A DNA stretch of 64,000 nt from Escherichia phage ECML-606-1, in sequence record OL631484.1; one strand, 5' to 3'. The translations under genes were made by a program, and so were the position numbers. Shown piece by piece: positions 6,654 to 52,885 of this stretch (the first letter of the stretch is position 1; every line of letters begins with the position of its first letter). The notes under the pieces are model-generated. The model saw only the letters and a list, made by a program, of their open reading frames with translations. It had not been told where the DNA came from and made no database searches.

Positions 6654-6728
6654 ACGGTTAACCTTTGCAAAGTAGTTCGCAGAGAGTGACATCACGACAT
6701 CACGACGCAAAATAATTTAAATACCCTC

Positions 6729-13898: not shown

Positions 13899-14153
13899 TT
13901 ACCACTTGAATTGTCGCTGATCGTCCTCGCAAAACTCGAACAGCTTATGCACGCCCCAGTAAACAGCCCCGGCGGCGACGACCACCATCACAAGGCCCAT
14001 CAGCATGGATCCGAATCCCAGAGCCGCGAGGCCAGAAGTGATGCCTGCTGCACTCAATCCTGAAACCTTCCCCAGAAGGCTGATCAGCAGGATAGGCGTT
14101 CCTGCCGCTGCTGCACCTGCTGTGACTTGTTTTGCCACTGTGTACCCGTTCAT
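13899..14153 (-). CDS. small membrane protein (two predicted TM helices; holin-like topology)
   Basis: 84 aa, two hydrophobic segments, charged C-terminus. Confidence 0.4.
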   Translation of the reverse strand: MNGYTVAKQVTAGAAAAGTPILLISLLGKVSGLSAAGITSGLAALGFGSMLMGLVMVVVAAGAVYWGVHKLFEFCEDDQRQFKW

Positions 14154-14581
14154 TACCGCCCCTTTTTATGTGTCGCTGAGCGGTGCTGTCCGCTGTAGCG
14201 ATGGTTTCCGTATGCCTGCTCGTCACGCCAGTTAATCTGCTGCTGACGCTTACCGGAATAAGCGGAGTAAGGCGGTTTTGGCTGGAGTTTAGCCATTACA
14301 TGCCAAACGTCATAGCAGGCATCATGGAAACGGCGATCCGTTGTCGAGTCCTTGAAATTGCTGTACATCATTTCCGCGACGTACTGCGCCAGCATGGATT
14401 GCAGCTCCTCGCGGTTGACGAACACTCGGAACTGGTAATCGCGGTGATCGTGCGTGACCACTTCTTTGGTCGGGAAGTATTTGTTCAGATGCTCTTTACG
14501 GCGAGCACGTACTTGGATCACTTCCGGGTCTTGTTTGTCTACGACAGCAGACAGGAAGCCATCAGATAAAATCAGCCACAT
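14153..14581 (-). CDS. hypothetical protein
   Basis: 142 aa; ATG at 14581 with GAGGA SD; promoter immediately upstream. Confidence 0.45.
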   Translation of the reverse strand: MWLILSDGFLSAVVDKQDPEVIQVRARRKEHLNKYFPTKEVVTHDHRDYQFRVFVNREELQSMLAQYVAEMMYSNFKDSTTDRRFHDACYDVWHVMAKLQPKPPYSAYSGKRQQQINWRDEQAYGNHRYSGQHRSATHKKGR

Positions 14582-14617: not shown

Positions 14618-14646
14618 ATAATACGTCATGCGTGCCGTATGGTCAA
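14618..14646 (-). promoter_or_regulatory. sigma70-like promoter TTGACC-N17-TATTAT with palindromic operator in spacer
   Basis: minus-strand hexamers; spacer contains ACGGCACGCATGACGT. Confidence 0.45.
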
Positions 14647-18900: not shown

Positions 18901-21900
18901 GGTGGCAGGGTTGTCGCCTTTCTTCGCCACGTAATCCTGTACAGCCATCAGCGTTTCGAGGTTGTCTTTGGCGTTGTTGAAGACCAGCCCAAGGTCATAC
19001 ATGTTTTTCGGCTTGCCCGGCGCAGCGGTCAGCTTGTCCAGCACCTCAGCCATGTACTCCTTGTACTTGGTACCGTTGATCGTGGTGCTCGGCGTCACGT
19101 TCTGCTCATATTTCATAGCCTCAATGAGCAGCTTTTTGCTGTTCTCATCCTTCGCCAGTGTTGCAGCGATGGCGTAGCCCTGAAAATCAGTTGCCTCGGT
19201 CGAGTAGAAACCAACGTCCGGCTTAATCGGCAGGTTGAGCGGCTTGCCATGCTTTTTGAAGTAAGCCTGACCGATTTCAGACGCAGCGTAGACGTGCCCG
19301 CTGTTCATTTTCAGGATATTGTCGATAACAGTCGTGTACGCGCCCTTATCGCCATGGTTATCCTTGATGAATTCCAGACCGATGCTGGTCGCATCATCGC
19401 CGTTCGCGCCAGCGAGGGCCTGTTTGAGCGCCACAATCTCGCTGCCCGCGCTGCCATTGGCTGAGGTCTCAGGCATATCCTGCTGTAAGATCCAGTGCCC
19501 ATTATGGAAGACCAGAATACCGCCTTTACCCTGCTTGGTATCACCTTCTTTCGGGCCATCCTCTACCAGCCACTTATTGACCTCCTGCTGGTACAGTTTA
19601 ACCTGCACAGCAGCTGGCTCTGAAAGGTGAAGCTCGCTCAGCTCATTAAAGTGCTTGGCGATCACATCAGGATCTGATTCTTTGCCTTTGTGAACTTCTT
19701 CGGCAATGACGTTATAGAGGGTCTGCACTTTCGTGCCATAGGTTTTCACCGTGTCGCTGGTTGGTGATACCAGCGGTTTTTCTGGCTCAGTCCCGTAAGT
19801 CTCACTCCACCACTTACCATAGGCTTTCTTGCCAGCGATAAAGAACTCATTCGCCAGCTCGTTAAACCCATTGTCCTTCATGGCCTCAGCCAGCACCACC
19901 AGCTGCGGCGCATCATGCCCATTCGCCGTCATCCAGTCGCCAGCAATCGCGTCGGCCTGTTTTTCGTCCTTGGCATCTGTCAGCGCATCAAAGGCGCTTT
20001 CCCACATGGCGTAATCATTCAGGATCGCTTTCTTCTCCTGCTTACGCTCATGTTTGGTGGCAATCTGCTCGGATTTCGCCGCAGCCTGAGACTTCTCGGC
20101 CCATGAATCGTACAGCTTCCCGACGCTGGACTCGGAGAAGGCCAGATCGCTACCGTAATAGGTAGACGCCTGCTCAATGAATGCCTCGCCTTTTGTCTTC
20201 GCCCACTCGTTGAACTCAGCCACATCGGCAAAATCCGGCAGCTGCGGCTCAGGGGTTGGCGCACGCTCCTGCTTGATCTGCGGTGGCGTCGGCAGGGATT
20301 TCACGGAGATATCGCCCAGCTCTTTCTTGGCGGCGGTCACGGCTTCGATGATCCACGCGGACAGATCAACCTTCTGGAAGGCATCAATCAGGTTCTGGTC
20401 ATCACGGATCACTGTCACCATGTCGTTGATGTTGTCCACAGCCAGCGCCCAGTTACCCGCGTTGAGGTCATTCTGGATGTCCTCACAGATGCCGTCGATA
20501 AACGCATCACCAGTCTGCGGAGGATTGGAGAAAGTCTTCACTCCCTCAGGCTTAGGCGCAGCAGCAAGGCCCAGAGACTCCGCCAGATTGACCGCAGGCT
20601 CTTTGCCAGCCATTACCTGCTGGTAAACCTCATTCTGCGTGTTGGAGAAGCCGGAGATATGGCCCCAGTCGCCCTTCTCGTTAACCCACATACCAGATCC
20701 CGGATTCTTCGGATCCGCGACGATGACTGCGCTGGTATTGGTCGGGTAAACGCCTGCGTCTGGAGTCGTGGACAGCACGCCATTCCACATGTTCTTGATG
20801 ACGTTTTGCTGCTTCTGGGTCAGGTGATTCGGCTTGCCCAGCTCCACCAGCTCGGTCGGGTACTCGCTATGGTGATAGTCGGAAATGTAGCCCAGATTGT
20901 CCGGGGTTTTGGTGTTGCCACCAAAGCCGATCAGTTTCAGGTACTGTCCCGCTTGGAACGGCTTAGCCAGCGGCTCACCCTTCTTGCTTATAGGCCATGC
21001 GGTCGCGTGCCCCATCAGCACTTTCAGGTACGGCTTACCGTCCTTGTCGTAGGTCTGGATGATTGAGCCTGCGGGCAGGTTCGGCATATCGGAGATCGAC
21101 AGCTTCTGGCCCTTTTTGAACTCACCAGCGACAGGCTGATCCTTGAGCGGCTCGCCAGTCTCCTGATTGTGCCAGCGACCGTCTTTGAAAACCTGCATCC
21201 CGTTTTTGCCCATGCGGGTATCACCTTCCTGCGGGCCTTCCTCAGCCCGGACGGTTTTCTGCTGCTCAACCTCTGCGCTGGCCTTCTGATCCTTTTCTGC
21301 CTGGCTAAACTGGCCCAGCATTGGATGCACGGCGTCTTTGCCGATAACCACTTTGATATCCGGGTAGCCCAGCGCTGCCAGCGCGTTATTCGCAGCCTTG
21401 GCGACTTTGAGCCCGTAGGTGTTTTTTCCGTATGTCATCGCCAGAATGCCGTTGATGTTGCCTACTTCGCCAGCGGCCTTGATAGCGGCGATCTGCGCGT
21501 TGTAGCTCTTGGCATTCTTAATGTTCTCCGCGACGGCGAACTGGCTCCAGTCGATAGCGTCCATGGCCTTCTTCGACACGGATGCTTTCGGGGCTGGCTT
21601 GCCTTCGGCGGTGTCCGGCTGCGCCGGGGAGGTAGCGATGATTTCAACCGCGCTCAATGGGCTCGGCTCCTCGGACTGCACCAGCGGCTTATTCGGATTC
21701 TCACCCGTCAGCAGCGCCAGCTTTTGCCCGTAGAGGTTCAGCAGCTTTTTGCTGTTCGGGGTGATGCCCTTCCAGCTTTTCGCCTTGCTCTTGATAGCTT
21801 CCAGCTCCGCCAGACTGGTGGCGTCGATGACCTTCTGAGCCTGCGCCTCATACGCGGTGCGCACGCCAGTGGAGTTTTTGCCGGATTCAAATTTAGGCAT

Positions 21901-22764
21901 GACGATTTCGCCTGGCTTCGGTGCTTCGGCAGCAGGTGTTGAGGCTTTCTGGACTTCTTCTTTAGCTGCGTTTTTTTTCTCAGGTGAAGGAGACGGCCCA
22001 TCTTTTGGCATAATAAGGCTTAGTTTTTTTGCTCCACCCGGTTCAGTTTTAAAGTATCCAAACTGCGTACCGTAATTCTCAATCGCGTGCAGCTGGTGCT
22101 GTTTTAAATCACCAATCTCAATAGTGATGACGTTATTTTTTACTTTGTATGCTTCAATCGGTGGCAGACCTAGGTAACTCTCAATTCCAGAAACAATGGC
22201 TTGTTGTTTGGCTGTCAAATTACCTGTAGCTGGTTTTGTTGCTGCCTTTGCCTCTTGCGCTACGGCTTCAATGGCCTGCTCAGCCATCTGATCGACGGTC
22301 TCAGGCTCTCTCTCGTATGTGGCGATGGCAGGGTGCTCACCCGCTTTCTGGCCCGCGCTGACCTTCTCCTGCGAGCCCATTTGCTCCAGCAGATAGTTGG
22401 CAATCGCCACCAGCTTTTTACCGTGGGTGTTCACGCCATAGGATGATCCCAGAATCGCCGCGATATCGCCGTTGGCAGCGTGCTGCAACAGGTTCGGGAC
22501 GTGTTTCTGGTTGAAATGCTTAATGTCTTTGTTGGTCGCCTCTTTCTCAGCAGGATAGAGCAGCTGGCTCGACTCCTCCTTAGGCATGGCGTAAGGCTTA
22601 TGGCCTTTGCCACCAGCTTTAGGGTGCGCGGCTTTCGGGGCGTTCTTGACGCCCTTCATGTCCGGCGTGGTTTTCTTCCAGCGCCCATTGATCAGAGCAT
22701 AGCCCGCTTGGTGGGCGAATTTTTGATTAAGTGCTTTTGCGAGGACAAGCATGGTGGCCACCAT
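15991..22764 (-). CDS. giant virion-associated protein with C-terminal ADP-ribosyltransferase-like domain
   Basis: 2257 aa; C-terminus has TFGRKF, IMSTSIS (STS) and GEKEIILPP (ExE); recurring internal motifs EGDTKxGxxGxxVFxNGRW and ILGSSYGVNTHG / ILAMTYGKNTYG. Confidence 0.65.
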   Translation of the reverse strand: MVATMLVLAKALNQKFAHQAGYALINGRWKKTTPDMKGVKNAPKAAHPKAGGKGHKPYAMPKEESSQLLYPAEKEATNKDIKHFNQKHVPNLLQHAANGDIAAILGSSYGVNTHGKKLVAIANYLLEQMGSQEKVSAGQKAGEHPAIATYEREPETVDQMAEQAIEAVAQEAKAATKPATGNLTAKQQAIVSGIESYLGLPPIEAYKVKNNVITIEIGDLKQHQLHAIENYGTQFGYFKTEPGGAKKLSLIMPKDGPSPSPEKKNAAKEEVQKASTPAAEAPKPGEIVMPKFESGKNSTGVRTAYEAQAQKVIDATSLAELEAIKSKAKSWKGITPNSKKLLNLYGQKLALLTGENPNKPLVQSEEPSPLSAVEIIATSPAQPDTAEGKPAPKASVSKKAMDAIDWSQFAVAENIKNAKSYNAQIAAIKAAGEVGNINGILAMTYGKNTYGLKVAKAANNALAALGYPDIKVVIGKDAVHPMLGQFSQAEKDQKASAEVEQQKTVRAEEGPQEGDTRMGKNGMQVFKDGRWHNQETGEPLKDQPVAGEFKKGQKLSISDMPNLPAGSIIQTYDKDGKPYLKVLMGHATAWPISKKGEPLAKPFQAGQYLKLIGFGGNTKTPDNLGYISDYHHSEYPTELVELGKPNHLTQKQQNVIKNMWNGVLSTTPDAGVYPTNTSAVIVADPKNPGSGMWVNEKGDWGHISGFSNTQNEVYQQVMAGKEPAVNLAESLGLAAAPKPEGVKTFSNPPQTGDAFIDGICEDIQNDLNAGNWALAVDNINDMVTVIRDDQNLIDAFQKVDLSAWIIEAVTAAKKELGDISVKSLPTPPQIKQERAPTPEPQLPDFADVAEFNEWAKTKGEAFIEQASTYYGSDLAFSESSVGKLYDSWAEKSQAAAKSEQIATKHERKQEKKAILNDYAMWESAFDALTDAKDEKQADAIAGDWMTANGHDAPQLVVLAEAMKDNGFNELANEFFIAGKKAYGKWWSETYGTEPEKPLVSPTSDTVKTYGTKVQTLYNVIAEEVHKGKESDPDVIAKHFNELSELHLSEPAAVQVKLYQQEVNKWLVEDGPKEGDTKQGKGGILVFHNGHWILQQDMPETSANGSAGSEIVALKQALAGANGDDATSIGLEFIKDNHGDKGAYTTVIDNILKMNSGHVYAASEIGQAYFKKHGKPLNLPIKPDVGFYSTEATDFQGYAIAATLAKDENSKKLLIEAMKYEQNVTPSTTINGTKYKEYMAEVLDKLTAAPGKPKNMYDLGLVFNNAKDNLETLMAVQDYVAKKGDNPATYQDIVKAAGDNVAHIPVLQSILKDSINMHGVPQGIPKASYKGDSMADADALDGLAAMAMLAKYTDSPEMKEAVLNSVKESAYALMANQGTDVVKMSMTDYAISTMTFVQDQITGAEEPAPAPEPAAPELGNIDLKLLDDIKSIAETKTGLQKVVKASVACKEYYDANPDKVDAVSTIKSVLIINDFTPVAIEGILTAIKNTVAEEDAKKADEGQKEGDGPKEGDMKPGANGMLILKNGRWVRANPDEIPAPDFAALGLSAWQQDHYMKYVDNLKAKLTKGGGTKGVIMQKADGSMLIYGEFGMKIKVSTEYGPTAPGKKALAQYASMMLMANGIKVKSGYNPEVNGTYAMNGVAQLMNATAATSNPAENGLAADGPMEVKKYQWKKKEPISVDEWTVTGGNQGGSNEGMKMKDADGQEWYVKFPDNEEHAKAEVLAAKLYSAAGLSAQDAMIVTKDGKMAIASKWENIKKAKTHAALAKAKGMLEGFAVDAWLGNWDVVGLAKDNVQLKDDGTIHRVDAGGSLMFRAQGAKKEFGPVVKELESLMDPKMNANSAAVFGGMTEADIAASVSKVLAISDAKIAHMVNQYGPGDEKAKKELVETLIKRKEYLAEKYPEAEQIIKMQKFKPEKISTPPDFLNWSGVGKSGPSSKEFLNKGNHDAAQAIYSAALTGDPEAIRGLTAPTFDKDTGAVTGQVPVLDHPSQHIKGYAMQAINEIKSQLTGHEAEQFRIGGDHPLYSMHEEYKPENWSGNDADKIGNLLVLGHPGIVEPEDLGITKTTFKAGTLTTNTYAKAAQEVWEKLPMTQKQAVQAYTGSSYKQMNSGLWKGNPSAEAKAAAQALSGMGHEISPGTTFGRKFSLGSGDLSKLKASVGKVIMEPAIMSTSISPDVWSGNIHLKMTAGPGVKGIYAGAGSLPSGGSISHHTGEKEIILPPNTRLLITKVNESGTKDADGFGGSGMTVVECIILPSV

Positions 22765-22796: not shown

Positions 22797-23042
22797 CTAA
22801 TTAACGTCTTTCACCTTCCTACCGAAGCGCTCCACGCACGCGAGAAACGCCTCCTGTTTCGTGTGGCAATACTCCGACAGCATCGTGGAGTGTTTGCCGT
22901 CATGAAACTGGATCTCCCACTTCGCGGATCCGGTCTTTGGCGGGCCGGGCCAGTCAGCGGCGGCGTCGTATACCGCCTGCTGCTCCGGTGTCATCTGGAA
23001 ACTCAACGGCCTGCTGCCTTCTTGAGCTCCATGACGATGCAA
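22797..23042 (-). CDS. hypothetical protein
   Basis: small ORF in minus-strand gene chain; start uncertain. Confidence 0.3.
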   Translation of the reverse strand: MHRHGAQEGSRPLSFQMTPEQQAVYDAAADWPGPPKTGSAKWEIQFHDGKHSTMLSEYCHTKQEAFLACVERFGRKVKDVN

Positions 23043-23443
23043 TGAAGCGTGTCCAGCTGTTCATCGGTCGCATGACTCAGCAGCTGGCTCAGGCCAAATC
23101 CACCGCTCATTTCATTCTGGATAACGCTGCGCATCGCTGCCTTGCGCTGCTCGTAGGCAAAGTCAGCCTCGTCACGGTAAACGTCAAGCGCCGGATATCC
23201 ACTGGTCTGCGGGACGTGGTTACGATTCCCCCAGTCCTTAATGGCAATGCGCTCCTGCCAGCATTCCGGCACGCTATTGCTCTCTTTGGCGCGGTCAATG
23301 TCTGATTGCCGGGCGACGTAAAGCCATTTGGTTCCTTTGCGGACAACAATCATGATCCCGCGTGGAGGGCTGCGCCTATCGCGCGGGCCAATAAACAGGG
23401 TGTCGCCAGATTTCAGGGCTTTCAGGTCGGTTTCTTTCAGCAT
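23003..23443 (-). CDS. hypothetical protein
   Basis: 146 aa; ATG at 23443 with AAGGA SD. Confidence 0.45.
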   Translation of the reverse strand: MLKETDLKALKSGDTLFIGPRDRRSPPRGIMIVVRKGTKWLYVARQSDIDRAKESNSVPECWQERIAIKDWGNRNHVPQTSGYPALDVYRDEADFAYEQRKAAMRSVIQNEMSGGFGLSQLLSHATDEQLDTLHCIVMELKKAAGR

Positions 23444-23453
23444 GGGGGAATCC

Positions 23454-23786
23454 TTAAATTTTGATTAAATGGGCTTTGTGAATACGCACGGTGCCGTAAC
23501 TGTAGCGGCCTTTCTTGCGGATATTCAGCTCGTAATACTGCCGGAAGTCGATCCCCGGCTCATTCCAGTTAAGAGTCACGAAAATGCCATGGACGTGCAG
23601 GACATCCAGCGGGCGATCATTGCCACGGATAAATACGCGGTCGCCTGGCTTGAGCTCCTGCTTGGTGGATTGCATCACCTCCAGCGCAAGATCAGCGTCT
23701 ACCTCAGTCGCATGGTAGCCAGCCTGCCACGTATACCAGCCATTCGCGCCAGCTGCGCGGATATGGTTTTTAATTGAGTTGATCAT
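23454..23786 (-). CDS. hypothetical protein
   Basis: ATG at 23786 with AAGGA SD (track ORF extends to 23882). Confidence 0.4.
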   Translation of the reverse strand: MINSIKNHIRAAGANGWYTWQAGYHATEVDADLALEVMQSTKQELKPGDRVFIRGNDRPLDVLHVHGIFVTLNWNEPGIDFRQYYELNIRKKGRYSYGTVRIHKAHLIKI

Positions 23787-23826
23787 GGGTTGGTTCCTTA
23801 AATGCCGCATCCCTGCGGTGTGGTTA

Positions 23827-24432
23827 TTATGCTGCGATACCGCGCTGCCCGGTGCCGATTGCCAGACGAGCCTTGCGGTCATAGTGCCCGATCAGGCCCA
23901 TGGTGATCAGGATGCCAGCCGCCAGCGAAATAACGACGAGCAGAATGACCAGCTGCGCCTGCTTACTGTCTTTGCTGTCTCCGCCCTTGAATAGCTTGCT
24001 CACGCTATCCCACGCGCCGGACACTCCACCATTAGCCGCGTTGTAGATGTTGTGGGCGCTGGCGAATGTGTTCCATGCTGCTGCCCCCATGTTGGCCCAG
24101 TTGCGTTCCCGGTATGCCACGATCCAGCTATGTACAGTGATCAGCAGCCCTGTACCGATAGCCGGGATAATGATGCCCAGATACCAGAGGCTGATTGCCG
24201 CCTGCGCATATTTCTCGTCGAGGTGCCCGGTAAGGTACGCCGCGTATACTTCAATGAAGATAATCACGCTGGAAAAGCCGATTGCGGCCTGAATAGCTCC
24301 GCACCAGACCAGCACCCGGATCCAGCCGCCAAGGCGTTTGGACTCGGCCCACATCGTCCCGCAGGTCTTGCAGTTGAACCAGCTGATCAGCAGGTTGAGG
24401 GCCAGAATTCCCCACAGCATTAACATTCCCAT
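23827..24432 (-). CDS. multi-pass inner membrane protein
   Basis: about 200 aa with at least 5 hydrophobic helices; ATG at 24432 with AAGGA SD. Confidence 0.45.
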   Translation of the reverse strand: MGMLMLWGILALNLLISWFNCKTCGTMWAESKRLGGWIRVLVWCGAIQAAIGFSSVIIFIEVYAAYLTGHLDEKYAQAAISLWYLGIIIPAIGTGLLITVHSWIVAYRERNWANMGAAAWNTFASAHNIYNAANGGVSGAWDSVSKLFKGGDSKDSKQAQLVILLVVISLAAGILITMGLIGHYDRKARLAIGTGQRGIAA

Positions 24433-24475
24433 TTTGTTTCCTTTGAAAAGTGCCGGGAGCCGCCCGGCGCGGTTG

Positions 24476-24694
24476 TTATTTATCTTTCTCGCGGTTGTAG
24501 CGCTCATGGGTTAGCAGATCCCATGTATCGCCATTATCCCGGCTCAGCAAACGCCAGCGGATGCCGACCTTTAACGAGATACCACCGCTGCGCTTGAGGT
24601 GGGTTATTGCTGCCTCTCCGCGCTGCCACATTTCCAGAATCTGCCCGGCTTTTATCAGCGCCTGAGCGGGAATTCCTTTCATTGCCTTGAACAT
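24476..24694 (-). CDS. hypothetical protein
   Basis: 72 aa; ATG directly after hairpin/U-run carrying GGUGAGG SD. Confidence 0.4.
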   Translation of the reverse strand: MFKAMKGIPAQALIKAGQILEMWQRGEAAITHLKRSGGISLKVGIRWRLLSRDNGDTWDLLTHERYNREKDK

Positions 24695-24723
24695 AAAAAA
24701 GCCTCACCTTGGGTTGGTGAGGC
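24695..24723 (-). terminator. hairpin plus U-run whose 3' arm carries the SD of the next gene
   Basis: GCCUCACC-loop-GGUGAGGC then U6 then ATG at 24694. Confidence 0.45.
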
Positions 24724-24724
24724 T

Positions 24725-24753
24725 ATATTATTACGTCATGGGTGACGTGTCAA
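24725..24753 (-). promoter_or_regulatory. sigma70-like promoter TTGACA-N17-TAATAT with perfect palindrome ACGTCATGGGTGACGT in spacer
   Basis: minus-strand hexamers; palindrome at 24733-24748. Confidence 0.5.
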
Positions 24754-25115
24754 CGGGTCGGCACCACTTCTACACCACCGTTGTAGTAGTCGCAGCGCAC
24801 CCACATCTGAACATCCGGCCTGAACCGCGTCGGGCGCTGGGTTCGCCATCCCTGCCACGCCCCTGACTCACCTTTTGCGTAAATTTCCAGCTGCCCTACT
24901 TCAACCGTTGGCAGGTCACAGGCACGCATCCAGCGATAGTGTGGTTTGGTGCGACGAAGTGCCGGGCCGACCGCAGTATGCCAGTGGCGCAGCTGTGCCT
25001 CTGTCAGATGCTCAGGCCAGCGTGGCAAATCGGAATTCAGATGCTGAGGGTCAATCTGGAACAGGTACGCGTTATACGCTGCCTCGCCCAGAGTCATCGC
25101 TTTAGCTCGGCTCAT
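24750..25115 (-). CDS. hypothetical protein
   Basis: ATG at 25115 (MSRAKAMTLGE...); track ORF extends to 25160. Confidence 0.4.
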   Translation of the reverse strand: MSRAKAMTLGEAAYNAYLFQIDPQHLNSDLPRWPEHLTEAQLRHWHTAVGPALRRTKPHYRWMRACDLPTVEVGQLEIYAKGESGAWQGWRTQRPTRFRPDVQMWVRCDYYNGGVEVVPTR

Positions 25116-25116
25116 A

Positions 25117-25425
25117 TCAGTACGTCCTGAATCCGTTGCAGTTGCGCAGGAAGTCCACAAAGTCGGCCTTAAACTCTTTGGCCCGGTCGGCTTCGGAACT
25201 AAACCAGCCCGGCGTCGGCTCCCACGCTTCGATGATGTCAGCCATCTTGCCAGCAGTGCGCGGAGAGACCACCCACGGGTCAGTCGTTTTACGCTGCTCT
25301 ACCTGCGGCAGCTTCGCCATGCCCGGCAGAAATACCAGCGTCCACCATGTCCCGTTTGCGATTCCATAGCCCGGCAGACGGTTCGGGTCGCCTTTACGGC
25401 GGCGATCTTCAATCTCGATACTCAT
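25117..25425 (-). CDS. hypothetical protein
   Basis: 102 aa; ATG at 25425. Confidence 0.4.
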   Translation of the reverse strand: MSIEIEDRRRKGDPNRLPGYGIANGTWWTLVFLPGMAKLPQVEQRKTTDPWVVSPRTAGKMADIIEAWEPTPGWFSSEADRAKEFKADFVDFLRNCNGFRTY

Positions 25426-25688
25426 ACAGATTTATCCCCCGTGTAATCAGCCACTACCTTCCCGTTGTTGTCGAAATACTTGATCTGATACATCGGGTGG
25501 CAATTGTGTTTGTGCTTCCCATATTTCAGCTGGTTGGCAAATACCACATCCAGATTCGCGCTGCCGTTCACCCCGGCGATGGTACCGATATCGCCCTGCA
25601 CCTCAACCATCATCCCCAGCTTGGCAAACGTGATCCCACGAGTGCGGGCCATGCCTTCTTCGAACTGCTTCGCCTTATTCACCATCAT
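25422..25688 (-). CDS. hypothetical protein
   Basis: ATG at 25688; overlaps neighbours by a few nt. Confidence 0.35.
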   Translation of the reverse strand: MMVNKAKQFEEGMARTRGITFAKLGMMVEVQGDIGTIAGVNGSANLDVVFANQLKYGKHKHNCHPMYQIKYFDNNGKVVADYTGDKSV

Positions 25689-26127
25689 CCTGCTCCTTTG
25701 CTGGTTCGCGCAGGGCACGGGCGTAATGCTCCGCGCGGGCGCAGATGTTGTTCATGCTGCTGCGCTCTTTGTCGAGCCAGTCAGCCTTGAATGCCGCCTT
25801 TTCTCCATCAGGCAGGACGCTCAGGGCTTTCTCATATGCCCGGCGCTCAGCCATGCTACCGATCAGGAATGACTCGAATACCTCAGCCAGCGCCTCTTTG
25901 TCGCACTGTTCAAAGGATTCTCCGACCGTTTTACCGAAGGTATTCTGGAAAAACTCCTCGGTGCCGCCAAACAGGAACAGCGGGACTTTGCGCGGCTCAG
26001 TCTCGGCATCGAGCTCAGTCGCGCCATATTGACCGCCCATGATGCCCACGGCGATAGCCGCAAGCTCATGCGTCGGCGCTTTAAAGGTGATTTTGTCTGA
26101 CGGGTTGATCAGCTCCCAGAGGATCAT
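25675..26127 (-). CDS. hypothetical protein
   Basis: ATG at 26127 with GAGGAG SD, ATGA overlap with upstream gene. Confidence 0.4.
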   Translation of the reverse strand: MILWELINPSDKITFKAPTHELAAIAVGIMGGQYGATELDAETEPRKVPLFLFGGTEEFFQNTFGKTVGESFEQCDKEALAEVFESFLIGSMAERRAYEKALSVLPDGEKAAFKADWLDKERSSMNNICARAEHYARALREPAKEQDDGE

Positions 26128-26420
26128 GATGCTGACTCCTCTTTTGGTTTGCCTTCGAATTTCTTGCCGCAGAATGGGCAATAATTCATCGTCATAAACG
26201 AACTGCCATCAGTGCAGCGCTGGGCCAGCGAGCCATCTTTCTTGCGCTTGAGAAAGCGGAAGGTGTAAGGCACGGTGACGCTGGAGTGGTCGCCCTCAGC
26301 CAGGACAAACACGCTGTTTGTCCAGTTGGCTTCTTCGATCTCTCCAATTTGATCGCCAAAGCGCTTGGTCAGGTGCTCTTTGAACTGAGCTCCCAGCTTT
26401 TTGAAACAATCACAGGCCAT
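26124..26420 (-). CDS. small zinc-ribbon protein
   Basis: 98 aa with CDCF...CPFCGKKF Cys pairs; ATG at 26420. Confidence 0.4.
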   Translation of the reverse strand: MACDCFKKLGAQFKEHLTKRFGDQIGEIEEANWTNSVFVLAEGDHSSVTVPYTFRFLKRKKDGSLAQRCTDGSSFMTMNYCPFCGKKFEGKPKEESAS

Positions 26421-26496
26421 CAGGAATCCTTTTAGGGTTGGTTAAATAACCCGTAACGCACCGCGCTACGGGGCTTTATTGCTTGATGCGTGGTTG

Positions 26497-26524
26497 ATGA
26501 TACGTTATGCGTGACGTAATGCAA
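26497..26524 (-). promoter_or_regulatory. sigma70-like promoter TTGCAT-N16-TATCAT with operator-like palindrome ACGTTATGCGTGACGT
   Basis: minus-strand hexamers; palindrome at 26502-26517. Confidence 0.45.
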
Positions 26525-26556
26525 GTATTATTTACGCCACTGCTGACGCATGGAGT

Positions 26557-26577
26557 AAAAAAGGCCCCGTAGGGCCT
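26557..26577 (-). terminator. rho-independent terminator (GGCCC-CGTA-GGGCC hairpin + U-run)
   Basis: hairpin 26561-26577 followed on minus strand by U6. Confidence 0.55.
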
Positions 26578-26664
26578 TCGCTTATTTACTGTAAACGGGG
26601 CTCAGACCATGATCTGAGTGCCCGTGTCCTGCTCCCCCGGTCGGGGCATTCCATACCGGGGCTT

Positions 26665-28080
26665 TCACTTTGGGGCAGTGGTAGGCTTCGGCTCGACCGA
26701 CGCTGGTTTGCCTGGCTGATTGCGGATCGTGGTAGCCAGCGCTCCCGGTCGCGTCGCAAAGTAGGTGTAACGCCATTTCCCGGTCTGGGTCTCCCAGTAT
26801 TTCACGCGCCAGCCTGAATCCTGATCTTCCCACGCCTCAGAGTAATACGCGGGCTTAGAATCGTTATCAGCATTGCGCTGCGCGATAGCTGCGGCCTCTC
26901 CGGTCGGCTTCCAGCCGTGCAGGTTGATCTCCTCACCTCCACGGTTCTGGATATGGCGCTGGTATTCAGCGCGAAGGGTGTCCTCAATTCTCGCCAGCTC
27001 AGCGGTTGCCTTACGGCCTGCTGCCGTACAGTAGAAGTGTGTCAGCTGCTCGAAGCGGTCAAAGCCGTTGGTCATGTTCAGGAACACTTTGGCCTTGCGG
27101 TCATACATCAGCTGGAGGTGTGGCTCCATCCATCCCTGCGTCGGGCGCTCTTTCATGTGAATGTGATACTCAGCCGTTTCTGTCCGGTCGTGCGGGATCA
27201 CATCCAGACGGTACAGATAGCCATGACGCCAGCAGCGCTTGTCTGTACGCAGGGTGCCATCGCTCAGCTCCTCCTCCGCGAGCTCCAGACGTTTCTCGCT
27301 GCCCGGCTTCACATCGGACAGGCCCAGCGAAACACGGCGGTGGACTTCCGCGATCATGCGCTGCGTCGTGTAATGGGGTTGCAGGGTGATGACCAGACCG
27401 CTGATTTTGGCACGCAGCGGGGCCAGCGGGTGCAAGCGCTTCACCACGTCCTCAATGGTTTCATCGCGCTGCTGCAAATGCAGCTGCCCGGACTCCAGCG
27501 GCTCGTAATCATCAGGGGCGGCGTGATCCAGTGTCAGCGCATCGACGGTCTTACCCTGCACCATACGCATACCACGGCCCAGCTGCGGGGCATGTACTAC
27601 CTGACTAACAGCCTCTTTCTGCTGCTCGGTCAGCTCAGGCTCCTCTACCGCGCGGGCCATCAGCTTTTGCAGGTCTGGGGTTGGGTTGGCTGGCGCTTCC
27701 AGCACTTCCTGAGGCACGACTGGACGCGTGCCACGGCCTGCTAATTGTACCCAAGGCTCACCGCCAGAAGGGAATCGGTCATTCAGATTGAGCACGTACT
27801 CAGCGTGGGCGAAGGCATCAGCCAGAGTCATCACCGGATCGATGTGAATGGTCTTGCCGTCATAAATCAGGTCAATGGGTTGGTTTGCAGCGACGGCACG
27901 GCCTACGGCGTTCAGGAGCGCTTCACCTTCTGCGGCGTGGAGTTGAGGCACTTCTTGCTGCTGGGCTTTTACCATTTCCAGACAGGACATAAACGACTCA
28001 GCTTTTGCCTCAGTAAACTTCTCATTGTGCAGGGCGTTAAATACAGCAACAGCGCGGGCAATAACGGATAATTTCGACAT
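26665..28080 (-). CDS. hypothetical protein (471 aa)
   Basis: long ORF, ATG at 28080; no motif recognised. Confidence 0.5.
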   Translation of the reverse strand: MSKLSVIARAVAVFNALHNEKFTEAKAESFMSCLEMVKAQQQEVPQLHAAEGEALLNAVGRAVAANQPIDLIYDGKTIHIDPVMTLADAFAHAEYVLNLNDRFPSGGEPWVQLAGRGTRPVVPQEVLEAPANPTPDLQKLMARAVEEPELTEQQKEAVSQVVHAPQLGRGMRMVQGKTVDALTLDHAAPDDYEPLESGQLHLQQRDETIEDVVKRLHPLAPLRAKISGLVITLQPHYTTQRMIAEVHRRVSLGLSDVKPGSEKRLELAEEELSDGTLRTDKRCWRHGYLYRLDVIPHDRTETAEYHIHMKERPTQGWMEPHLQLMYDRKAKVFLNMTNGFDRFEQLTHFYCTAAGRKATAELARIEDTLRAEYQRHIQNRGGEEINLHGWKPTGEAAAIAQRNADNDSKPAYYSEAWEDQDSGWRVKYWETQTGKWRYTYFATRPGALATTIRNQPGKPASVEPKPTTAPK

Positions 28081-28099: not shown

Positions 28100-28501
28100 T
28101 TAATTTTCTTGAAACAGCTTGTTGATTTCCAGCATTGCGGTACGGATAAAATCGCAATGCGCTTTATTTCTTACCAGACTGACGTTATTTTGACGCTCTA
28201 ACTTTTTGGCTACCTCCATCACTAATTTCAGGCTTTCAACGTTTGCGTTAATCTCGCATTCACGTTCTGCGGTGATCTCTGCCCACTTCTGGCCTACCGG
28301 GCGAACATGACGGCGCTCATAACGGTTTCCGCCCTCATACTCCCCGTTATGTTTGTAAAACTTCACGCCAGCCACGACGAACGTGTTTTTATAGACACGA
28401 TCAACGTTTATTTTGCGGTACACGTTGAATGTGTGTGAGCCGGGAACATCCACGCGCTCAGTAATTAAAACAACATCACCTTTCTTAACATTCTCGAACA
28501 T
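28100..28501 (-). CDS. hypothetical protein
   Basis: 133 aa; ATG at 28501 immediately after hairpin/U-run carrying GGAGGA. Confidence 0.45.
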   Translation of the reverse strand: MFENVKKGDVVLITERVDVPGSHTFNVYRKINVDRVYKNTFVVAGVKFYKHNGEYEGGNRYERRHVRPVGQKWAEITAERECEINANVESLKLVMEVAKKLERQNNVSLVRNKAHCDFIRTAMLEINKLFQEN

Positions 28502-28531
28502 AAAAAAAGTCCTCCGCTTGTGGGGAGGACT
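28502..28531 (-). terminator. hairpin plus U-run carrying SD of downstream gene
   Basis: AGUCCUCC-loop-GGAGGACU then U7 then ATG. Confidence 0.45.
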
Positions 28532-28558
28532 TTAGCGCGTTATCTTTTTTGACGCAAG

Positions 28559-28587
28559 AATTATTTACGGCATACGTGACGCATCAA
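28559..28587 (-). promoter_or_regulatory. sigma70-like promoter TTGATG-N17-ATAATT with CGTCACGTATGCCG element in spacer
   Basis: minus-strand hexamers; overlaps stop codon of methyltransferase gene. Confidence 0.35.
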
Positions 28588-35367: not shown

Positions 35368-35397
35368 GGCTCGCTCCTTACGTCATTGACGCCGTTG

Positions 35398-35425
35398 ATA
35401 ATACATCATTTATGATGCGACGCAA
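35398..35425 (-). promoter_or_regulatory. sigma70-like promoter TTGCGT-N16-TATTAT with CATCAT-AA-ATGATG palindrome in spacer
   Basis: minus-strand hexamers; ACGTCA-TTGACG element in 5' UTR. Confidence 0.45.
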
Positions 35426-37527: not shown

Positions 37528-37893
37528 TTATCGGGTTTGTTTTGAATGGTCGAGCTCGGCGAGTGCCTGCTCCATGTTGTTTACGACTGTCACGAAACGC
37601 GGGTTAGCGCTTGGATCGCGAGCAAGGTCTGCGGTGTGTTTCAGCAGAGCGCGGGCAGCATTCACCGTCTTGGTGATAGCTGGCAGCGTGCCGATAGACA
37701 GCATCTGCATGAAGTAGAACTCCCCCGGCATGATGGTTGACAGCATTTCGCCGCTACCTGCCGGATCCCTGCGGCCTTCCTCCTTGCGCTGGTAATTGCG
37801 AAGGGTATGGCCCAGCAGGTCAGCCATTGCCTGCTGCGTCATGCCTGCGGCAATGCGGGCCTCACGTACTTCTGCCCCGGTGATTTTAATCAT
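37528..37893 (-). CDS. XRE-family HTH transcriptional regulator
   Basis: AEVREARIAAGMTQQAMADLLGHTLRNYQRKEEG helix-turn-helix; perfect palindrome just upstream. Confidence 0.6.
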   Translation of the reverse strand: MIKITGAEVREARIAAGMTQQAMADLLGHTLRNYQRKEEGRRDPAGSGEMLSTIMPGEFYFMQMLSIGTLPAITKTVNAARALLKHTADLARDPSANPRFVTVVNNMEQALAELDHSKQTR

Positions 37894-37933: not shown

Positions 37934-37949
37934 ACGTCATTATTGACGT
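37934..37949. promoter_or_regulatory. perfect palindromic operator candidate ACGTCATTATTGACGT
   Basis: 16-bp inverted repeat 45 nt upstream of the XRE regulator start codon. Confidence 0.5.
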
Positions 37950-38410
37950 AAGCCAGCATTCTGATAACTGGCATATCTGGCGTCGGTCGCCATTTCATCC
38001 AGCATCGCCCTCAGGCCGCTGACGCCGTGGCGCATGATCCCGAAGTGCAGGGCGGCGTGCAGAAACGCATCGGCGTTGTTGTCCCCCTGCTTGTTGATGC
38101 GCGGGATGATGGTTTTGCTGGTGGCTAATCCGGTATCAACCGGGATGATGACCTGACCTGCCAGCTGAGGGGCACGCTCGCCGGGAAGCATATCGCGCAG
38201 CCAGCGCTTACACATGATGGACTGCTCCAGTGCTTTCTCAGCCGTGCGGTGCTCGCTGACGGTGGCGGCGTGGCACAGTGCCCCGTTAACCATGCCGGAC
38301 AGGATGACGCGACGGCCTTTGGTCGCCACAATCAGATCCGCGTAGCCTTCGGCCTTGGCCTGCTTCACGCACGCGGCGAGGTGATGTTTGCTTGGTGCGC
38401 TCTTAGCCAT
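37940..38410 (-). CDS. hypothetical protein
   Basis: 156 aa ORF. Confidence 0.4.
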   Translation of the reverse strand: MAKSAPSKHHLAACVKQAKAEGYADLIVATKGRRVILSGMVNGALCHAATVSEHRTAEKALEQSIMCKRWLRDMLPGERAPQLAGQVIIPVDTGLATSKTIIPRINKQGDNNADAFLHAALHFGIMRHGVSGLRAMLDEMATDARYASYQNAGLRQ

Positions 38411-40067: not shown

Positions 40068-40115
40068 TATCTCGTTAAGTACCATTTAAAGGGGTTTTGT
40101 GTTGGAACGAGGCTA

Positions 40116-40144
40116 ACTATACGGCACAGGTGACGCGTCCGCAA
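40116..40144 (-). promoter_or_regulatory. sigma70-like promoter TTGCGG-N17-TATAGT with operator-like palindrome in spacer
   Basis: minus-strand hexamers; spacer contains ACGGCACAGGTGACGC. Confidence 0.45.
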
Positions 40145-47815: not shown

Positions 47816-47843
47816 CGCATTTTTGCGGCAATAATGACGTAAA

Positions 47844-49173: not shown

Positions 49174-49236
49174 CTGAGAATGGACAAAAAAAAGCCAGCT
49201 ATGCGCTGGCTTATTTATTACGGTGTAATTAATTCA

Positions 49237-49662
49237 TTAGAAATATCCATCAGCATCAGGGCGGACGGCAAGGCGGATTTTTTCGAGGGCGTCGGTAGCG
49301 ATGTGTAACTGATTAATTACGTCATCACGAATCTCTTTCACCTTACCCGGCTGCACATCATCCATCATGCTGAACATGGCGAAAGCGCCGCGCACAAATT
49401 TATCGGTGTAGCCCTTCTCGTCTTTATCCAGCGGAATGGATTTATTGAGCGCCGTCACGGTGCGCTCGAAGTCCTCATAAATATCAGCGCGTGGCGTTTC
49501 AGGTGCCGGAATGGGGCGGGAGCTCGTCACCAGTTTGCCGCCAATGATCTCGGCGTCGCCATTAATCCACTGGTGAACCTGCGGGGCGTGGACGCCCATA
49601 GCGGTGGCGAAAGCGGTTTTATTGCCCGCGTAATACAGCTCAATATAGGTGACTAATTTCAT
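49237..49662 (-). CDS. HTH DNA-binding protein (Cro/CI-type)
   Basis: TAFATAMGVHAPQVHQWINGD helix-turn-helix; ATG 49662 with GAGGA SD (track ORF starts at TTG 49701); iteron array lies directly downstream. Confidence 0.55.
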   Translation of the reverse strand: MKLVTYIELYYAGNKTAFATAMGVHAPQVHQWINGDAEIIGGKLVTSSRPIPAPETPRADIYEDFERTVTALNKSIPLDKDEKGYTDKFVRGAFAMFSMMDDVQPGKVKEIRDDVINQLHIATDALEKIRLAVRPDADGYF

Positions 49663-49664
49663 CA

Positions 49665-49865
49665 CTATTTCCTCAGAATAAACGCCCGGAACACGGGCCA
49701 AAACAGAATGTCGTACATCAGCCAGAACACCAGCAGAGCGCAGGCCAGATACCAGAGATCGCGGTTGCCAGCCGCGTCATAAATCATGTAGCCGGGGAAG
49801 GCGAGCAGGCAGAAACAAATCAGCACGCTCAGCAGCTCACAGGCGCGGTTGATTGCCTTAATCAC
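49665..49865 (-). CDS. small membrane protein
   Basis: 66 aa, two hydrophobic helices. Confidence 0.4.
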   Translation of the reverse strand: MIKAINRACELLSVLICFCLLAFPGYMIYDAAGNRDLWYLACALLVFWLMYDILFWPVFRAFILRK

Positions 49866-50262
49866 CGTATCGCCCCCCGTTATACGTTGCGCCTTTCGGC
49901 AGGACGGTGCAGGGCTCGGTCTTGTAACTCTGCGTGCTGCGGTCGTAATGCGGAATGCTGGCGGTCAGCTTGGCGCACTCGCGCTCGGCGTCGGCGGGAT
50001 CCGTGAACACTGCCAGCAGGGTATCGCAGGCATCATCGTTGCCGTAGTCCGTGTGGAAATACAGCGCGGTGGCCGGAATGACTTCTGCCATGATTGCCGG
50101 GCGTGCAGCCGCCAGAAGGCGCAGGCAATCGGGGCAGGTCACTTCACCTTCTTCCACCTCATGCTTGGCGCGGAATGACTTCCAGCCGCACAGGGTCACA
50201 GTGGTGCCCATTCCCTCGGTGTAGAGGTGATTGAGGTCGTTGGTCATCTGGATGACTTTCAT
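49858..50262 (-). CDS. hypothetical protein
   Basis: 134 aa. Confidence 0.4.
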   Translation of the reverse strand: MKVIQMTNDLNHLYTEGMGTTVTLCGWKSFRAKHEVEEGEVTCPDCLRLLAAARPAIMAEVIPATALYFHTDYGNDDACDTLLAVFTDPADAERECAKLTASIPHYDRSTQSYKTEPCTVLPKGATYNGGRYGD

Positions 50263-50266
50263 GATT

Positions 50267-50545
50267 TCATTCCCACGATTTTGACTTGCGCTCTACTTCA
50301 TCAAACAGGGCGTTAGCCTCTGCTTCCTTACGGGCTTTCGCCATTTTAAGCTGGTCATTCAGCCCGGCAGACGCGCCATAACACCAGCCGGAGATAATGG
50401 CGCACACCACGCCAGCGAACGGGGCCAGCGGATAATCTTCGCCACCCAGACCACGCGCAGAGAGCCACATTGAGGCCAGCATAAGCACGGCAAACAGAGC
50501 AGTCACAAAGCGCAGGCAGTTACGAACTTCACGAATTCTTTCCAC
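50267..50545 (-). CDS. small membrane protein
   Basis: 92 aa with hydrophobic helices. Confidence 0.4.
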   Translation of the reverse strand: MERIREVRNCLRFVTALFAVLMLASMWLSARGLGGEDYPLAPFAGVVCAIISGWCYGASAGLNDQLKMAKARKEAEANALFDEVERKSKSWE

Positions 50546-50546
50546 G

Positions 50547-51167
50547 TTATTCTCCTTTATAAAACTCGTTAATCACATCAATTTTGCAGTGCTGCTCTAC
50601 CTCGCGCAGCTGCTGCTTGTAGCGTGCAGGCATCCCGTCTTTCATGCGGTGCCATTTCAGATCGGTGAGGAGGCTATACCACTGCCCGCCACACTCGACG
50701 AATTGCCCGGCATCGCACGCATAGCGGGTGCCTTCGATCAGGTAATACTGCGGCGTTTTCTCGCCTTTCGCCGGGTCGCCCAGCTTGGTGGCCCGTGCAG
50801 GCGATTTGCCGTAGCCTACCGCCGCAATGCAGCGTCGGGTCAGGTGCTCAGCGGCAGGATACCAGTACCCGTCATCGTGCAGTTTCAGCGGGTGCGCCTG
50901 CGGGTCATCCGGGATCAGGAAGGCATCACCGTGATAGTTGTACATCGTGCCGAAAACGGCAGGCTTGGTCGGCTCACGGTCGGCAATGAAGCGCTTAACC
51001 TTGAAGCCTTCCATCACGTCAGGCGTAACACCGTGGCGTGCGCAGATGTCAGCCAGTGCGGCCTCAGCCTCAGCGCGGAATGATTCAAACGCGGCATCCG
51101 GCAGGCGTACCATTGTCCAGTCGATAGCCTCAGCAGCCGGGCCAGTGAGCATGGTGTATTTGGACAT
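50547..51167 (-). CDS. hypothetical protein
   Basis: 206 aa. Confidence 0.45.
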   Translation of the reverse strand: MSKYTMLTGPAAEAIDWTMVRLPDAAFESFRAEAEAALADICARHGVTPDVMEGFKVKRFIADREPTKPAVFGTMYNYHGDAFLIPDDPQAHPLKLHDDGYWYPAAEHLTRRCIAAVGYGKSPARATKLGDPAKGEKTPQYYLIEGTRYACDAGQFVECGGQWYSLLTDLKWHRMKDGMPARYKQQLREVEQHCKIDVINEFYKGE

Positions 51168-51169
51168 AA

Positions 51170-51448
51170 TTAAAATCCTCCTGGTGCATTAGCAACGCGT
51201 TTCAGATGGTCGCGGTATTGCGCTTTGGTTTCGGTCATCAGCTCAGCCGGAACCTTACGGATCAGGGTGAATTGCTCGCCTGCGAGGTTGTAGCAGATGA
51301 AGCCGATCCCGTGGGAGCCGTCGCCAAACTGGCGACCGGACACGCGAACATTGATAGTCCCAGAGCCTTTCCCATTGGTGGCTTGCGCCACCGCTTTTTT
51401 GAGGATATCAGCGAAGGCTTTCGCCTCCGCACCTGATAAAGTTTTCAT
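51170..51448 (-). CDS. hypothetical protein
   Basis: 92 aa. Confidence 0.4.
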   Translation of the reverse strand: MKTLSGAEAKAFADILKKAVAQATNGKGSGTINVRVSGRQFGDGSHGIGFICYNLAGEQFTLIRKVPAELMTETKAQYRDHLKRVANAPGGF

Positions 51449-51909
51449 TAGCGATCCCCTTCGTGGGTTGCATCTTCAATTTCACGGAGGCTTTTGCCTT
51501 CCGCCATCGCTTTGGCCTGCCAGTAGTCGAGGCACCCCATACGCGCTTCCATTTCGTCCTGGTGCGCCTGATCCATCCAGCCTGCATTCTCCAGATGACG
51601 CTCATATGCCGCGTCCGGGTCGCCGTGGTCAGCGAACTGCTCATACAGGTGGTCTTCGGTCTCTTTCTTCCACTCGGTAAAAGAGGCCAGCGCGGCGTTG
51701 AGCATTACCGGAGAGTTGGAGAAGAACAGCGCCTTTTTCTCGGTGCGCTCAGCGCTGCCAGTCAGGGCCCAGCGAAGTACAACCACTTTGCCTTCACCGC
51801 CGATTTCGACGCTCAGGTTATGAGCCGGGGAAACCATGATCAGCTCGGTTAACAGCAGCTCAAATTCGGCCTTGGTCATGCGCGGTGCAGTGCGTTTTAT
51901 GTTGGTCAT
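51448..51909 (-). CDS. hypothetical protein
   Basis: 153 aa; promoter/operator just upstream. Confidence 0.45.
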   Translation of the reverse strand: MTNIKRTAPRMTKAEFELLLTELIMVSPAHNLSVEIGGEGKVVVLRWALTGSAERTEKKALFFSNSPVMLNAALASFTEWKKETEDHLYEQFADHGDPDAAYERHLENAGWMDQAHQDEMEARMGCLDYWQAKAMAEGKSLREIEDATHEGDR

Positions 51910-51943: not shown

Positions 51944-51972
51944 AATATACGTCATGGGTGACGGGTGCGCAA
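51944..51972 (-). promoter_or_regulatory. sigma70-like promoter TTGCGC-N17-TATATT with palindrome ACGTCATGGGTGACGG in spacer
   Basis: minus-strand hexamers; palindrome 51949-51964. Confidence 0.45.
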
Positions 51973-52857: not shown

Positions 52858-52885
52858 ATTGTACGTCACTAGTGACGTAATGCAA
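52858..52885 (-). promoter_or_regulatory. sigma70-like promoter TTGCAT-N16-TACAAT with perfect palindrome ACGTCACTAGTGACGT in spacer
   Basis: minus-strand hexamers; palindrome 52863-52878. Confidence 0.5.

Follow-up and report, generated by a model that had tools for sequence, protein, structure and literature searches.

Dyad-symmetric operators of ~16-21 bp which lie between or over the -35 and -10 hexamers of a sigma-70 promoter are found in phage P22 (Arc/Pant) and in the lambdoid cI-Cro systems, where they are bound by a small, dimeric, autoregulated phage repressor. In other phages one type of site is scattered through a large genome, at or just after early promoters, and serves the maintenance of lysogeny: P1 C1 has many operators around a 94-kb genome, the repressor of phiC31 acts at conserved inverted repeats and gp71 of mycobacteriophage L5 at stoperators, with the sites of P1 C1 and L5 being asymmetric. 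Small XRE-type HTH dimers are also known from restriction-modification systems, whose C proteins bind palindromic boxes of the GACT-N3-AGTC type in their own promoter and regulate one operon, first as activator and then as repressor. [quoted passage not shown]

We analysed a stretch of 64,000 nucleotides (hereafter the window) from Escherichia phage ECML-606-1 (OL631484.1), in which a 16-nt inverted repeat recurs in minus-strand promoters. As in P22 and the lambdoid phages, the repeat occupies the core of sigma-70-type promoters, the small dimeric autoregulated repressor being here proposed from sequence only. Unlike in those phages, one operator type covers about ten promoters across 38 kb and not one immunity region, an integrase or lysogeny module was not found, and the XRE family concerned is uncharacterised and has a novel C-terminal half. 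The scattering of one site type through a large genome recalls P1 C1, phiC31 and L5, from which the lineage of ECML-606-1, phiT5282EW and fHe-Yen8-01 differs in that no integrase was found in it and no copies were found in E. coli genomes or PLSDB; the window's site is moreover a dyad, unlike the asymmetric sites of P1 C1 and L5. The boxes of the C proteins are dissimilar in sequence, and the window system is regulon-wide. The reading which we favour, with a probability of roughly 0.55, is that the dyad is the operator of a phage-encoded, presumably dimeric HTH repressor, most likely the XRE protein encoded at 37528-37893, in about ten promoters.

The phage, the window and relatives

Over window 23000-27000, the stretch which was compared, the DNA was ~94% identical to that of Enterobacter phage phiT5282EW, a 95.5-kb record whose annotation is nearly all hypothetical. 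Relatives by MCP included Yersinia phage fHe-Yen8-01 (80%), Pseudomonas phages Dolphis and Jeremy (about 65%), Aeromonas phage ST4 and Bordetella phage PHB04 (genus Phabquatrovirus). Dolphis, Jeremy, Touem01 and Mecenats66 make up the Pseudomonas and Morganella relatives. ECML-606-1, phiT5282EW and fHe-Yen8-01, together with metagenomic relatives, are an uncharacterised group of ~95-kb myoviruses; a literature search returned nothing on fHe-Yen8-01, ECML-606 or phiT5282EW, or on transcription in Phabquatrovirus. No integrase was found in phiT5282EW or fHe-Yen8-01, one being present in ST4 and PHB04, and there were no copies of the phage in 5,426 complete E. coli genomes or in PLSDB plasmids. 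The close relatives sampled (lineage 1) were phiT5282EW, two IMG/VR genomes and four Logan/NCBI contigs. Lineage 3, which was reached via an exhaustive profile search and contig look-up, consists of the 86-kb IMG/VR contig L012 and the Logan contig L258 (59% GC), and its IMG/VR record is IMGVR_UViG_3300045988_078232; queries for more lineage-3 sequence with DUF7696, the ParB-methyltransferase and a 158-aa methyltransferase yielded nothing but widespread unrelated phages.

Part of the structural and packaging module occupies window 1-13.8 kb (capsid, protease, portal, TerL and tail fibre). A 38-kb minus-strand block contains mostly unknown small genes, methyltransferases, an adhesin-like gene and a gene encoding 2257 aa, a plus-strand block lies at 53.5-57.2 kb, and a replication module with primase, SSB and helicase is also in the window, as are an iteron-rich ori-like region and a ParE-like toxin gene. 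Pfam and PHROG scans found no RNA polymerase, sigma factor or annotated activator among the window proteins, most of which are unannotated.

Several intergenic features were seen apart from the repeat. The 506-nt intergenic stretch 48731-49236 contains at least 14 copies of GGAACGG/CCGTTCC in both orientations, flanking an AT-rich core with TACTACTACT and ATTATTATT runs, and is likely to be an iteron-type replication origin; the analogous region in lineage 3 (L258 2659-3184) has GTTAC/GTAAC repeats. A tRNA-Asn (GTT) at 7499-7574 (plus strand), the sole match in an Rfam search, lies in the 1-kb portal/terminase gap on the strand opposite to nearly all genes. The GC-rich intergenic region 4637-4898 (262 nt), between the portal gene 4899-6710 and gene 3533-4636, has many short complementary runs and gave no Rfam match.

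The repeat and the promoters which carry it

Allowing up to 2 mismatches, ACGTCANNNNTGACGT had 15 matches in the window, compared to 1.94 ± 1.50 (maximum 6) in 100 dinucleotide shuffles, and 11 of the 15 are intergenic, though intergenic DNA makes up only ~8% of the window. This bears out the preliminary description, in which an operator-like repeat, ACGTCA-N4-TGACGT, had been proposed for minus-strand promoters. All 11 intergenic copies point the same way as the minus-strand gene that follows. Perfect copies number three (24733, 37934 and 52863), and the four coding matches (4623, 17600, 41546 and 47192) are at chance level. A stricter pattern, CGTC-N6-GACG followed by TAnnnT within 4 nt, gave 4 matches vs 0.1 expected. 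The centres of CGTC and GACG are 10 bp apart, which places the half-sites one helical turn apart. The earlier coordinates were correct except for those of one copy, where 28566-28581 should read 28567-28582 (an offset of 1 nt), and to the earlier list we added copies at 26534, 35380, 37934 and, as a weak one, 47825.

The usual layout consists of a terminator hairpin, TTGnnn, 1-2 nt, the 16-mer, the -10, a short A/C-rich leader and the gene. Most copies lie at about -27 to -12, with others at +2..+17, and the predicted transcription starts include those near 24718, 14611, 51937 and 52851. A position between the -35 and -10 hexamers, as first described, was confirmed at 10 intergenic copies; the exception is the copy at 35380, which is without its own -10 and belongs to the promoter at 35403. 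At 6 of the 11 sites the repeat and the -10 share one T, which ends the former and opens the latter, and at 4 the -10 starts 2-3 nt further on. Spacers measure 15-17 nt depending on the choice of hexamers, so that the 16-17 nt reported before holds under one assignment and widens to 15-17 nt under another. The -35 hexamers had been called near-consensus, which is right for 24733 (TTGACA) and 14623 (TTGACC) and too generous for the rest, which mostly have TTG alone (TTGCAT, TTGCGG etc., 3/6). Scores for the -35 were 6/6, 5/6 and 4/6 at three sites and 3/6 (TTG only) at the others, and for the -10 they were 5/6 at eight sites and 4/6 at two (37934 and 47825).

In our sequence scan we judged the repeat-bearing promoters to have -35 and -10 elements of the sigma-70 type with suitable spacing. 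Sigma-70-like matches overall were not in excess over shuffled sequence; the two matches at 10 of 12 positions within window 1-60000 (14646..14618 and 24753..24725) both contain the repeat. No comparable promoter family was revealed when ST4 and PHB04 were scanned for sigma-70 promoters, nor was CGTC-N6-GACG with TAnnnT enriched there. An exact-palindrome enumeration (5-mer arms, spacers 0-10) was too strict to detect the motif in relatives, although an unrelated element in PHB04 came to light. PHB04 has a hairpin or palindrome, TGTCGTGACACGACA, upstream of gp005, the portal gene and gp049, 9-14 nt from their starts (record 4727, 39185 and 49327), which appears to be a translational-operator-like element separate from the window's repeat.

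The individual copies, which we call operators in keeping with the favoured reading, are all on the minus strand. The first gene behind the best promoter, TTGACA (24753..24748)-17-TAATAT (24730..24725), is a ParE-like gene at 24476-24694; the operator, ACGTCACCCATGACGT at 24733..24748, has perfect arms and is identical in phiT5282EW and an IMG/VR relative. This promoter is predicted to drive the ParE-like gene and the operon down through the 2257-aa gene. The ParE-like toxin domain (PF24732, E = 1.8e-16) is encoded on the minus strand and the next gene overlaps by 32 nt; the two may form a toxin-antitoxin pair in an apparently virulent phage. In fHe-Yen8-01 the homologue of the 2257-aa gene (15991-22764, minus strand) bears the annotation particle-associated ADP-ribosyltransferase toxin, and the one in ST4 is labelled ADP-ribosyltransferase.

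At 52863..52878 the operator ACGTCACTAGTGACGT is a perfect 16-bp palindrome in TTGCAT-16-TACAAT, behind a terminator hairpin and upstream of 52374-52784. The nearby divergent region 53446-53516, between 52927-53445 (minus strand) and 53517-53744 (plus strand), has a shared ATTATAAT without an operator, and its promoters are probably of an unregulated, perhaps immediate-early, class. The operator at 51949..51964, CCGTCACCCATGACGT, lies in TTGCGC-17-TATATT or, as assigned by the scan, TGCGCA-16-TATATT, upstream of an 8-gene unit (51909..49237). Its counterpart in phiT5282EW, ACGTCAGCTATGTCGT, is kept though the flanks are about 85% identical, and orthologous sites are present in the Yersinia phage (49773) and in lineage 3 (L012 3694 and L258 356). 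The copy at 47825..47840, ACGTCATTATTGCCGC, upstream of 46147-47760, is weak and doubtful; its position 6 varies in relatives, and there is a possible lineage-3 counterpart at L258 4084.

The operator at 40121..40136, GCGTCACCTGTGCCGT, sits in TTGCGG-17-TATAGT upstream of the adhesin/YadA-anchor-like gene 38772-40085, and the earlier inclusion of the YadA-like gene among those controlled through the repeat agrees with this placement. In relatives GCGTCA-CCTG-TGCCGT becomes GCGTCA-TGCG-TGCCGT, the arms being kept in a 79%-identical stretch with indels, and the Yersinia phage has an orthologous site at 60587. At 37934..37949 the operator ACGTCAATAATGACGT, with perfect arms, overlaps the stop codon of 37940-38410, is followed by TGnTACACT (an extended -10) and stands directly upstream of the XRE HTH gene 37528-37893. 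The relatives L254 and L255 have two operators at this gene, the first within the spacer and the second over +1, where it lies between -10 and SD, and L256 has two degenerate CGGC-type copies in the same arrangement.

The operator at 35380..35395, ACGGCGTCAATGACGT, belongs with the DUF7696-operon promoter; it follows the -10 (TATTAT) at a distance of 2 nt, extends over +1 and adjoins the SD. It was kept in all lineage-1 relatives sampled, and its lineage-3 counterpart, ACGTCGTTTCTGACGC, is at the equivalent position (L258 11613). Besides this operator at +1, the spacer of the same promoter (35403-35418, minus strand) holds a second palindrome, GCATCATAAATGATGT, in which G3 and C14, invariant elsewhere, are symmetrically changed to A and T, and lineage 3 has yet another palindrome, GCGCAAATTTGCGG, at the position equivalent to 35403; a second regulator may act on the DUF7696-operon promoter.

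The operator GCGTCACGTATGCCGT (28567..28582) follows the ParB-methyltransferase gene and precedes 28100-28501; its Yersinia orthologue, GCGTCTAATTAGACGT, is at 72291. The adjoining region 28506-28566 (minus strand) contains TTGCGTCAAAAAAGATAACGCG, which is conserved in the Yersinia phage as TTGCATCAAAAAAGATAAGGCG and may be a second promoter (TTGCGT-17-TAAAGT); after it comes a strong hairpin, AAAGTCCTCC-N8-GGAGGACTTT, with a T-run and ATG, which would sequester the SD even in promoter-initiated RNA. Tandem operators with centres 32 bp apart occur at 26502..26549 (GCGTCAGCAGTGGCGT at 26534-26549 and ACGTCACGCATAACGT at 26502-26517), behind a terminator and upstream of 26124-26420. The last operator, ACGGCACGCATGACGT at 14623..14638, lies in TTGACC (14646..14641)-17-TATTAT (14623..14618) upstream of 14153-14581 and has a Yersinia orthologue at 85562.

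Hairpins were also seen between the -10 and the start codon. The 6-9 nt which follow the -10, up to the predicted +1, form the 5' arm, and the Shine-Dalgarno forms the 3' arm, often with a T-run and ATG next to it. These occur at window 24700-24724 (minus strand), after the -10 at 14623 and 51949, and in Yersinia L005 (record 76887, 85562 and 49773). One example, AGCCTCACC-aaccca-AGGTGAGGCT-TTTTTATG, has a stability of -16 kcal/mol, and an A/C-rich motif, AACCCAACC, is common to the loops. RNA initiated at the promoter would begin without the first 6 nt, and taking these away makes the hairpins collapse (-16.0 to -2.6, -10.5 to -0.9 and -11.2 to -3.8). This suggests a combined terminator and SD mask which acts only on read-through RNA; RNA initiated at the promoter would lack the 5' arm and would be neither terminated nor translationally masked. 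A classical arrangement which these hairpins echo is that of T4 lysozyme (gene e).

Conservation of the sites and candidate binders

Among close relatives (~94% identical overall) the arms of the repeat are kept but both the flanks and the central 4 nt vary, as at 40121, 51949 and 37934. In fHe-Yen8-01 (47% GC) 6 promoters at orthologous positions carry ACGTC[T/G][A/G]AT[A/C][C/T]GACGT before homologous genes, and the form of the site in lineage 3 is GCGTCG-N4-CGACG(T/C); with a window consensus of (A/G)CGTCA-N4-TG(A/C)CGT, the CGTC-N6-GACG core is common to the three lineages and the inner bases differ. Over 36 distinct sites G3, C5 and C14 were invariant, C2, G12 and G15 were found in at least 90% and T16 was nearly invariant.

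We treated these 36 sites as a 6-bp stem and found an arm covariation of 0.174, compared to 0.167 ± 0.020 in column shuffles (179 of 500 shuffles at or above the observed value). Pair 4/13 was unpaired in 16 of the 36 sites, and no compensatory changes keeping the arms paired were found among them. The arms degenerate independently and so behave as symmetric protein half-sites, not as a base-paired hairpin. It is very improbable that the repeat acts without a trans-acting partner, as a relic of promoter-cassette duplication or as a DNA or RNA hairpin (a cruciform, or a processing or termination signal in read-through RNA). The promoters are indeed alike beyond the repeat (TTGC -35, A/C-rich leader) and the repeat could form a 6-bp stem; however, the arms are kept where centre and flanks diverge, orthologous sites occur in three lineages of 47-59% GC, and the site, being upstream of the predicted start, is absent from promoter-initiated RNA. 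The data support a conserved dyad-symmetric site within a family of sigma-70-type promoters that would be bound by a protein.

HTH signals were found in only three ORFs (37528-37893, 49237-49701 and 63133-63486), those named in the preliminary description, and in Pfam and PHROG scans no other DNA-binding candidate could be recognised. About 90 window proteins were scanned, and a clear DNA-binding domain was seen in the XRE protein alone. This 121-aa XRE-family protein (37528..37893, minus strand) has its HTH in residues 1-45 and a helical C-terminal half. It matched Pfam HTH_3 (PF01381) marginally, with 23.4 bits vs a cut-off of 23, and HTH_31 with 23.6, below the cut-off of 27, while its PHROG match was phrog_955 ('HTH DNA binding protein'). 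The nearest hits in a PDB sequence search were generic XRE regulators (E about 0.05), and the AlphaFold model was of low confidence (pLDDT 70.6, pTM 0.42).

In all three lineages the XRE gene is behind an operator-bearing promoter, its own or that of its operon: in the Yersinia phage and lineage 3 it has no promoter of its own and its operon is headed by an operator promoter (Yersinia 60587, L258 9013). Only these three full-length XRE lineages emerged when 1.8 billion representatives were searched exhaustively with a profile, and no XRE homologue was found in ST4 or PHB04, both of which are also without the motif. The N-terminal 66 residues are the same in the window and phiT5282EW, the C-terminal half having diverged. 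The recognition helix HTLRNYQRKE was invariant in 7 of 8 lineage-1 homologues (58-100% identical overall), with L31M in P0003. In the Yersinia phage the helix reads YTLRAYQRKE and helix 2 changes from TQQA to KPKQ, and in lineage 3 the recognition helix is HSLRAYQRKE and helix 2 STSE; the recognition-helix substitutions are H29Y/N33A for the Yersinia type and T30S/N33A for lineage 3. These changes in the recognition helix between lineages parallel the inner base changes of the operator; the covariation covers three lineages, which is too few for statistics, and every other phage protein differs between them too. We regard the XRE protein as the leading candidate for the binder, at about even odds.

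A different phage protein could bind the operator instead, namely 63133-63486, 49237-49701 or a small protein without a recognisable domain, most window proteins having no Pfam or PHROG annotation. We hold this to be unlikely. Although the window and phiT5282EW have the same operators, their versions of 49237-49701 share only 31% identity in the HTH, and this is evidence against it as the binder. The protein 63133-63486 has weak HTH signals and is 99% conserved in phiT5282EW, but its recognition helix is nearly unchanged in the Yersinia phage and it is present in the motif-less ST4 and PHB04. No operator was seen at the promoter of either gene.

A host (Enterobacterales) transcription factor exploited by the phage would account for the confinement of the motif to phages of E. 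coli, Enterobacter and Yersinia and its absence from the Aeromonas and Bordetella relatives. This seems to us a far-fetched reading, given that the inner half-site bases vary by phage lineage, in step with the phage-encoded HTH, and that CRP/FNR sites have the opposite arm orientation (TGA-N6-TCA); we also know of no E. coli regulator with a CGTCA-N4-TGACG consensus. Resemblances to CRP/FNR-type sites and to MetJ met-boxes were dropped on spacing, orientation or sequence.

Proposed mode of action and scope of the regulon

A phage-encoded repressor or activator had originally been suggested, of which the repressor is favoured by conserved copies over +1 (35380, L258 11613 and the second operator in L254 and L255). 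Function in either place, the spacer or +1, is characteristic of steric repression and hard to fit to an activator or an RNA polymerase recognition element. Features of XRE/Cro-CI-type regulators which are seen in the sequence are the (marginal) HTH_3 domain, the dyad over the core promoter or +1 and the operator at the regulator's own promoter.

Under repression by the XRE protein, the operator would be embedded in about ten host sigma-70-type promoters which head the units of the 38-kb accessory region (window 14.6-52.9 kb), whose genes are neither structural nor concerned with replication. A dimer bound at -27 to -12 would cover the first base of the -10 and either keep RNA polymerase out or block the open complex, and one bound over +1 would act as a roadblock. 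The XRE gene is predicted to be transcribed from an operator-bearing promoter and the repressor would thus be negatively autoregulated; as it accumulates, the whole set of promoters would be turned down together. We infer protein binding, dimerisation, repression, the identity of the binder and the timing of the regulon alike from nucleotide and protein sequence.

The site could alternatively be bound by an activator, or by a factor which appropriates RNA polymerase in the manner of P1 Lpa, and mark a middle or late promoter class. The P1 precedent is close in several respects, being a class of promoters with a -10 and an inverted repeat just upstream, in ~11 copies in a ~94-kb genome (PMC10695390). 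The dyad of the window is centred at about -20 and adjoins a good -10, and since most -35 hexamers score only 3/6 (TTGCnn) the promoters may need activation. The register to the -10 is fixed at most sites, and at the 6 of 11 where the repeat ends on the first T of the -10 this could reflect a contact with RNA polymerase and not simple occlusion. Some of the downstream genes are also virion-associated in fHe-Yen8-01 (the adhesin/RBP and the 2257-aa protein). We nevertheless think activation rather improbable. At P1 Lpa promoters the -35 is replaced, the genes are late and structural and the effect is activating, whereas here most sites have a TTG-type -35 at a spacing of 15-17 nt and some conserved copies lie over +1. 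The structural module is without sites (window 1-13.8 kb; phiT5282EW 1.7-41 kb), and no late-promoter activator or sigma factor is annotated among the window proteins.

Two specific types of activated promoter fit the sites poorly. A P1 Lpa-type late promoter is at odds with the TTG -35 at 15-17 nt at most sites and with the lack of sites in the head, tail and packaging module, and a MerR-type spacer-binding activator was ruled out because the spacers are 15-17 bp and never 19-20 bp.

From 52.9 to 14.6 kb, the units headed by a site comprise small unknown genes, the XRE gene, the adhesin/YadA-anchor gene, the DUF7696-methyltransferase unit, the unit after the ParB-methyltransferase, the genes from the ParE-like gene through the 2257-aa gene and a 2-gene unit before the tail fibre gene. 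No sites were found in the structural module, the plus-strand block or the replication module. The 'early/middle' timing attributed to this regulon is suggested by its gene content.

The favoured reading, a phage-encoded repressor acting at the dyad, brings no new principle: classical phage systems include both operators within the promoter and single repressors that serve many dispersed sites. It would give this unstudied group of ~95-kb myoviruses, in which most genes are without known function, its first regulatory map, as it defines about ten transcription units, names a testable candidate regulator and its sites, and offers three natural operator/HTH variants for studies of specificity. 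More tentatively, and as a possibility which we would not yet call probable, these apparently virulent, integrase-less myoviruses may run their whole accessory region via one autoregulated XRE repressor with an operator in every promoter of the region. There would be at least three natural specificities, with the inner half-sites CAC, TAA and G-N4-C corresponding to HTLRN, YTLRA and HSLRA, and terminator/anti-SD hairpins with the 5' arm between the -10 and +1 would let only promoter-initiated RNA escape termination and be translated. If true, this would amount to a compact 'insulated cassette' architecture and to ready-made orthogonal repressor/promoter pairs.
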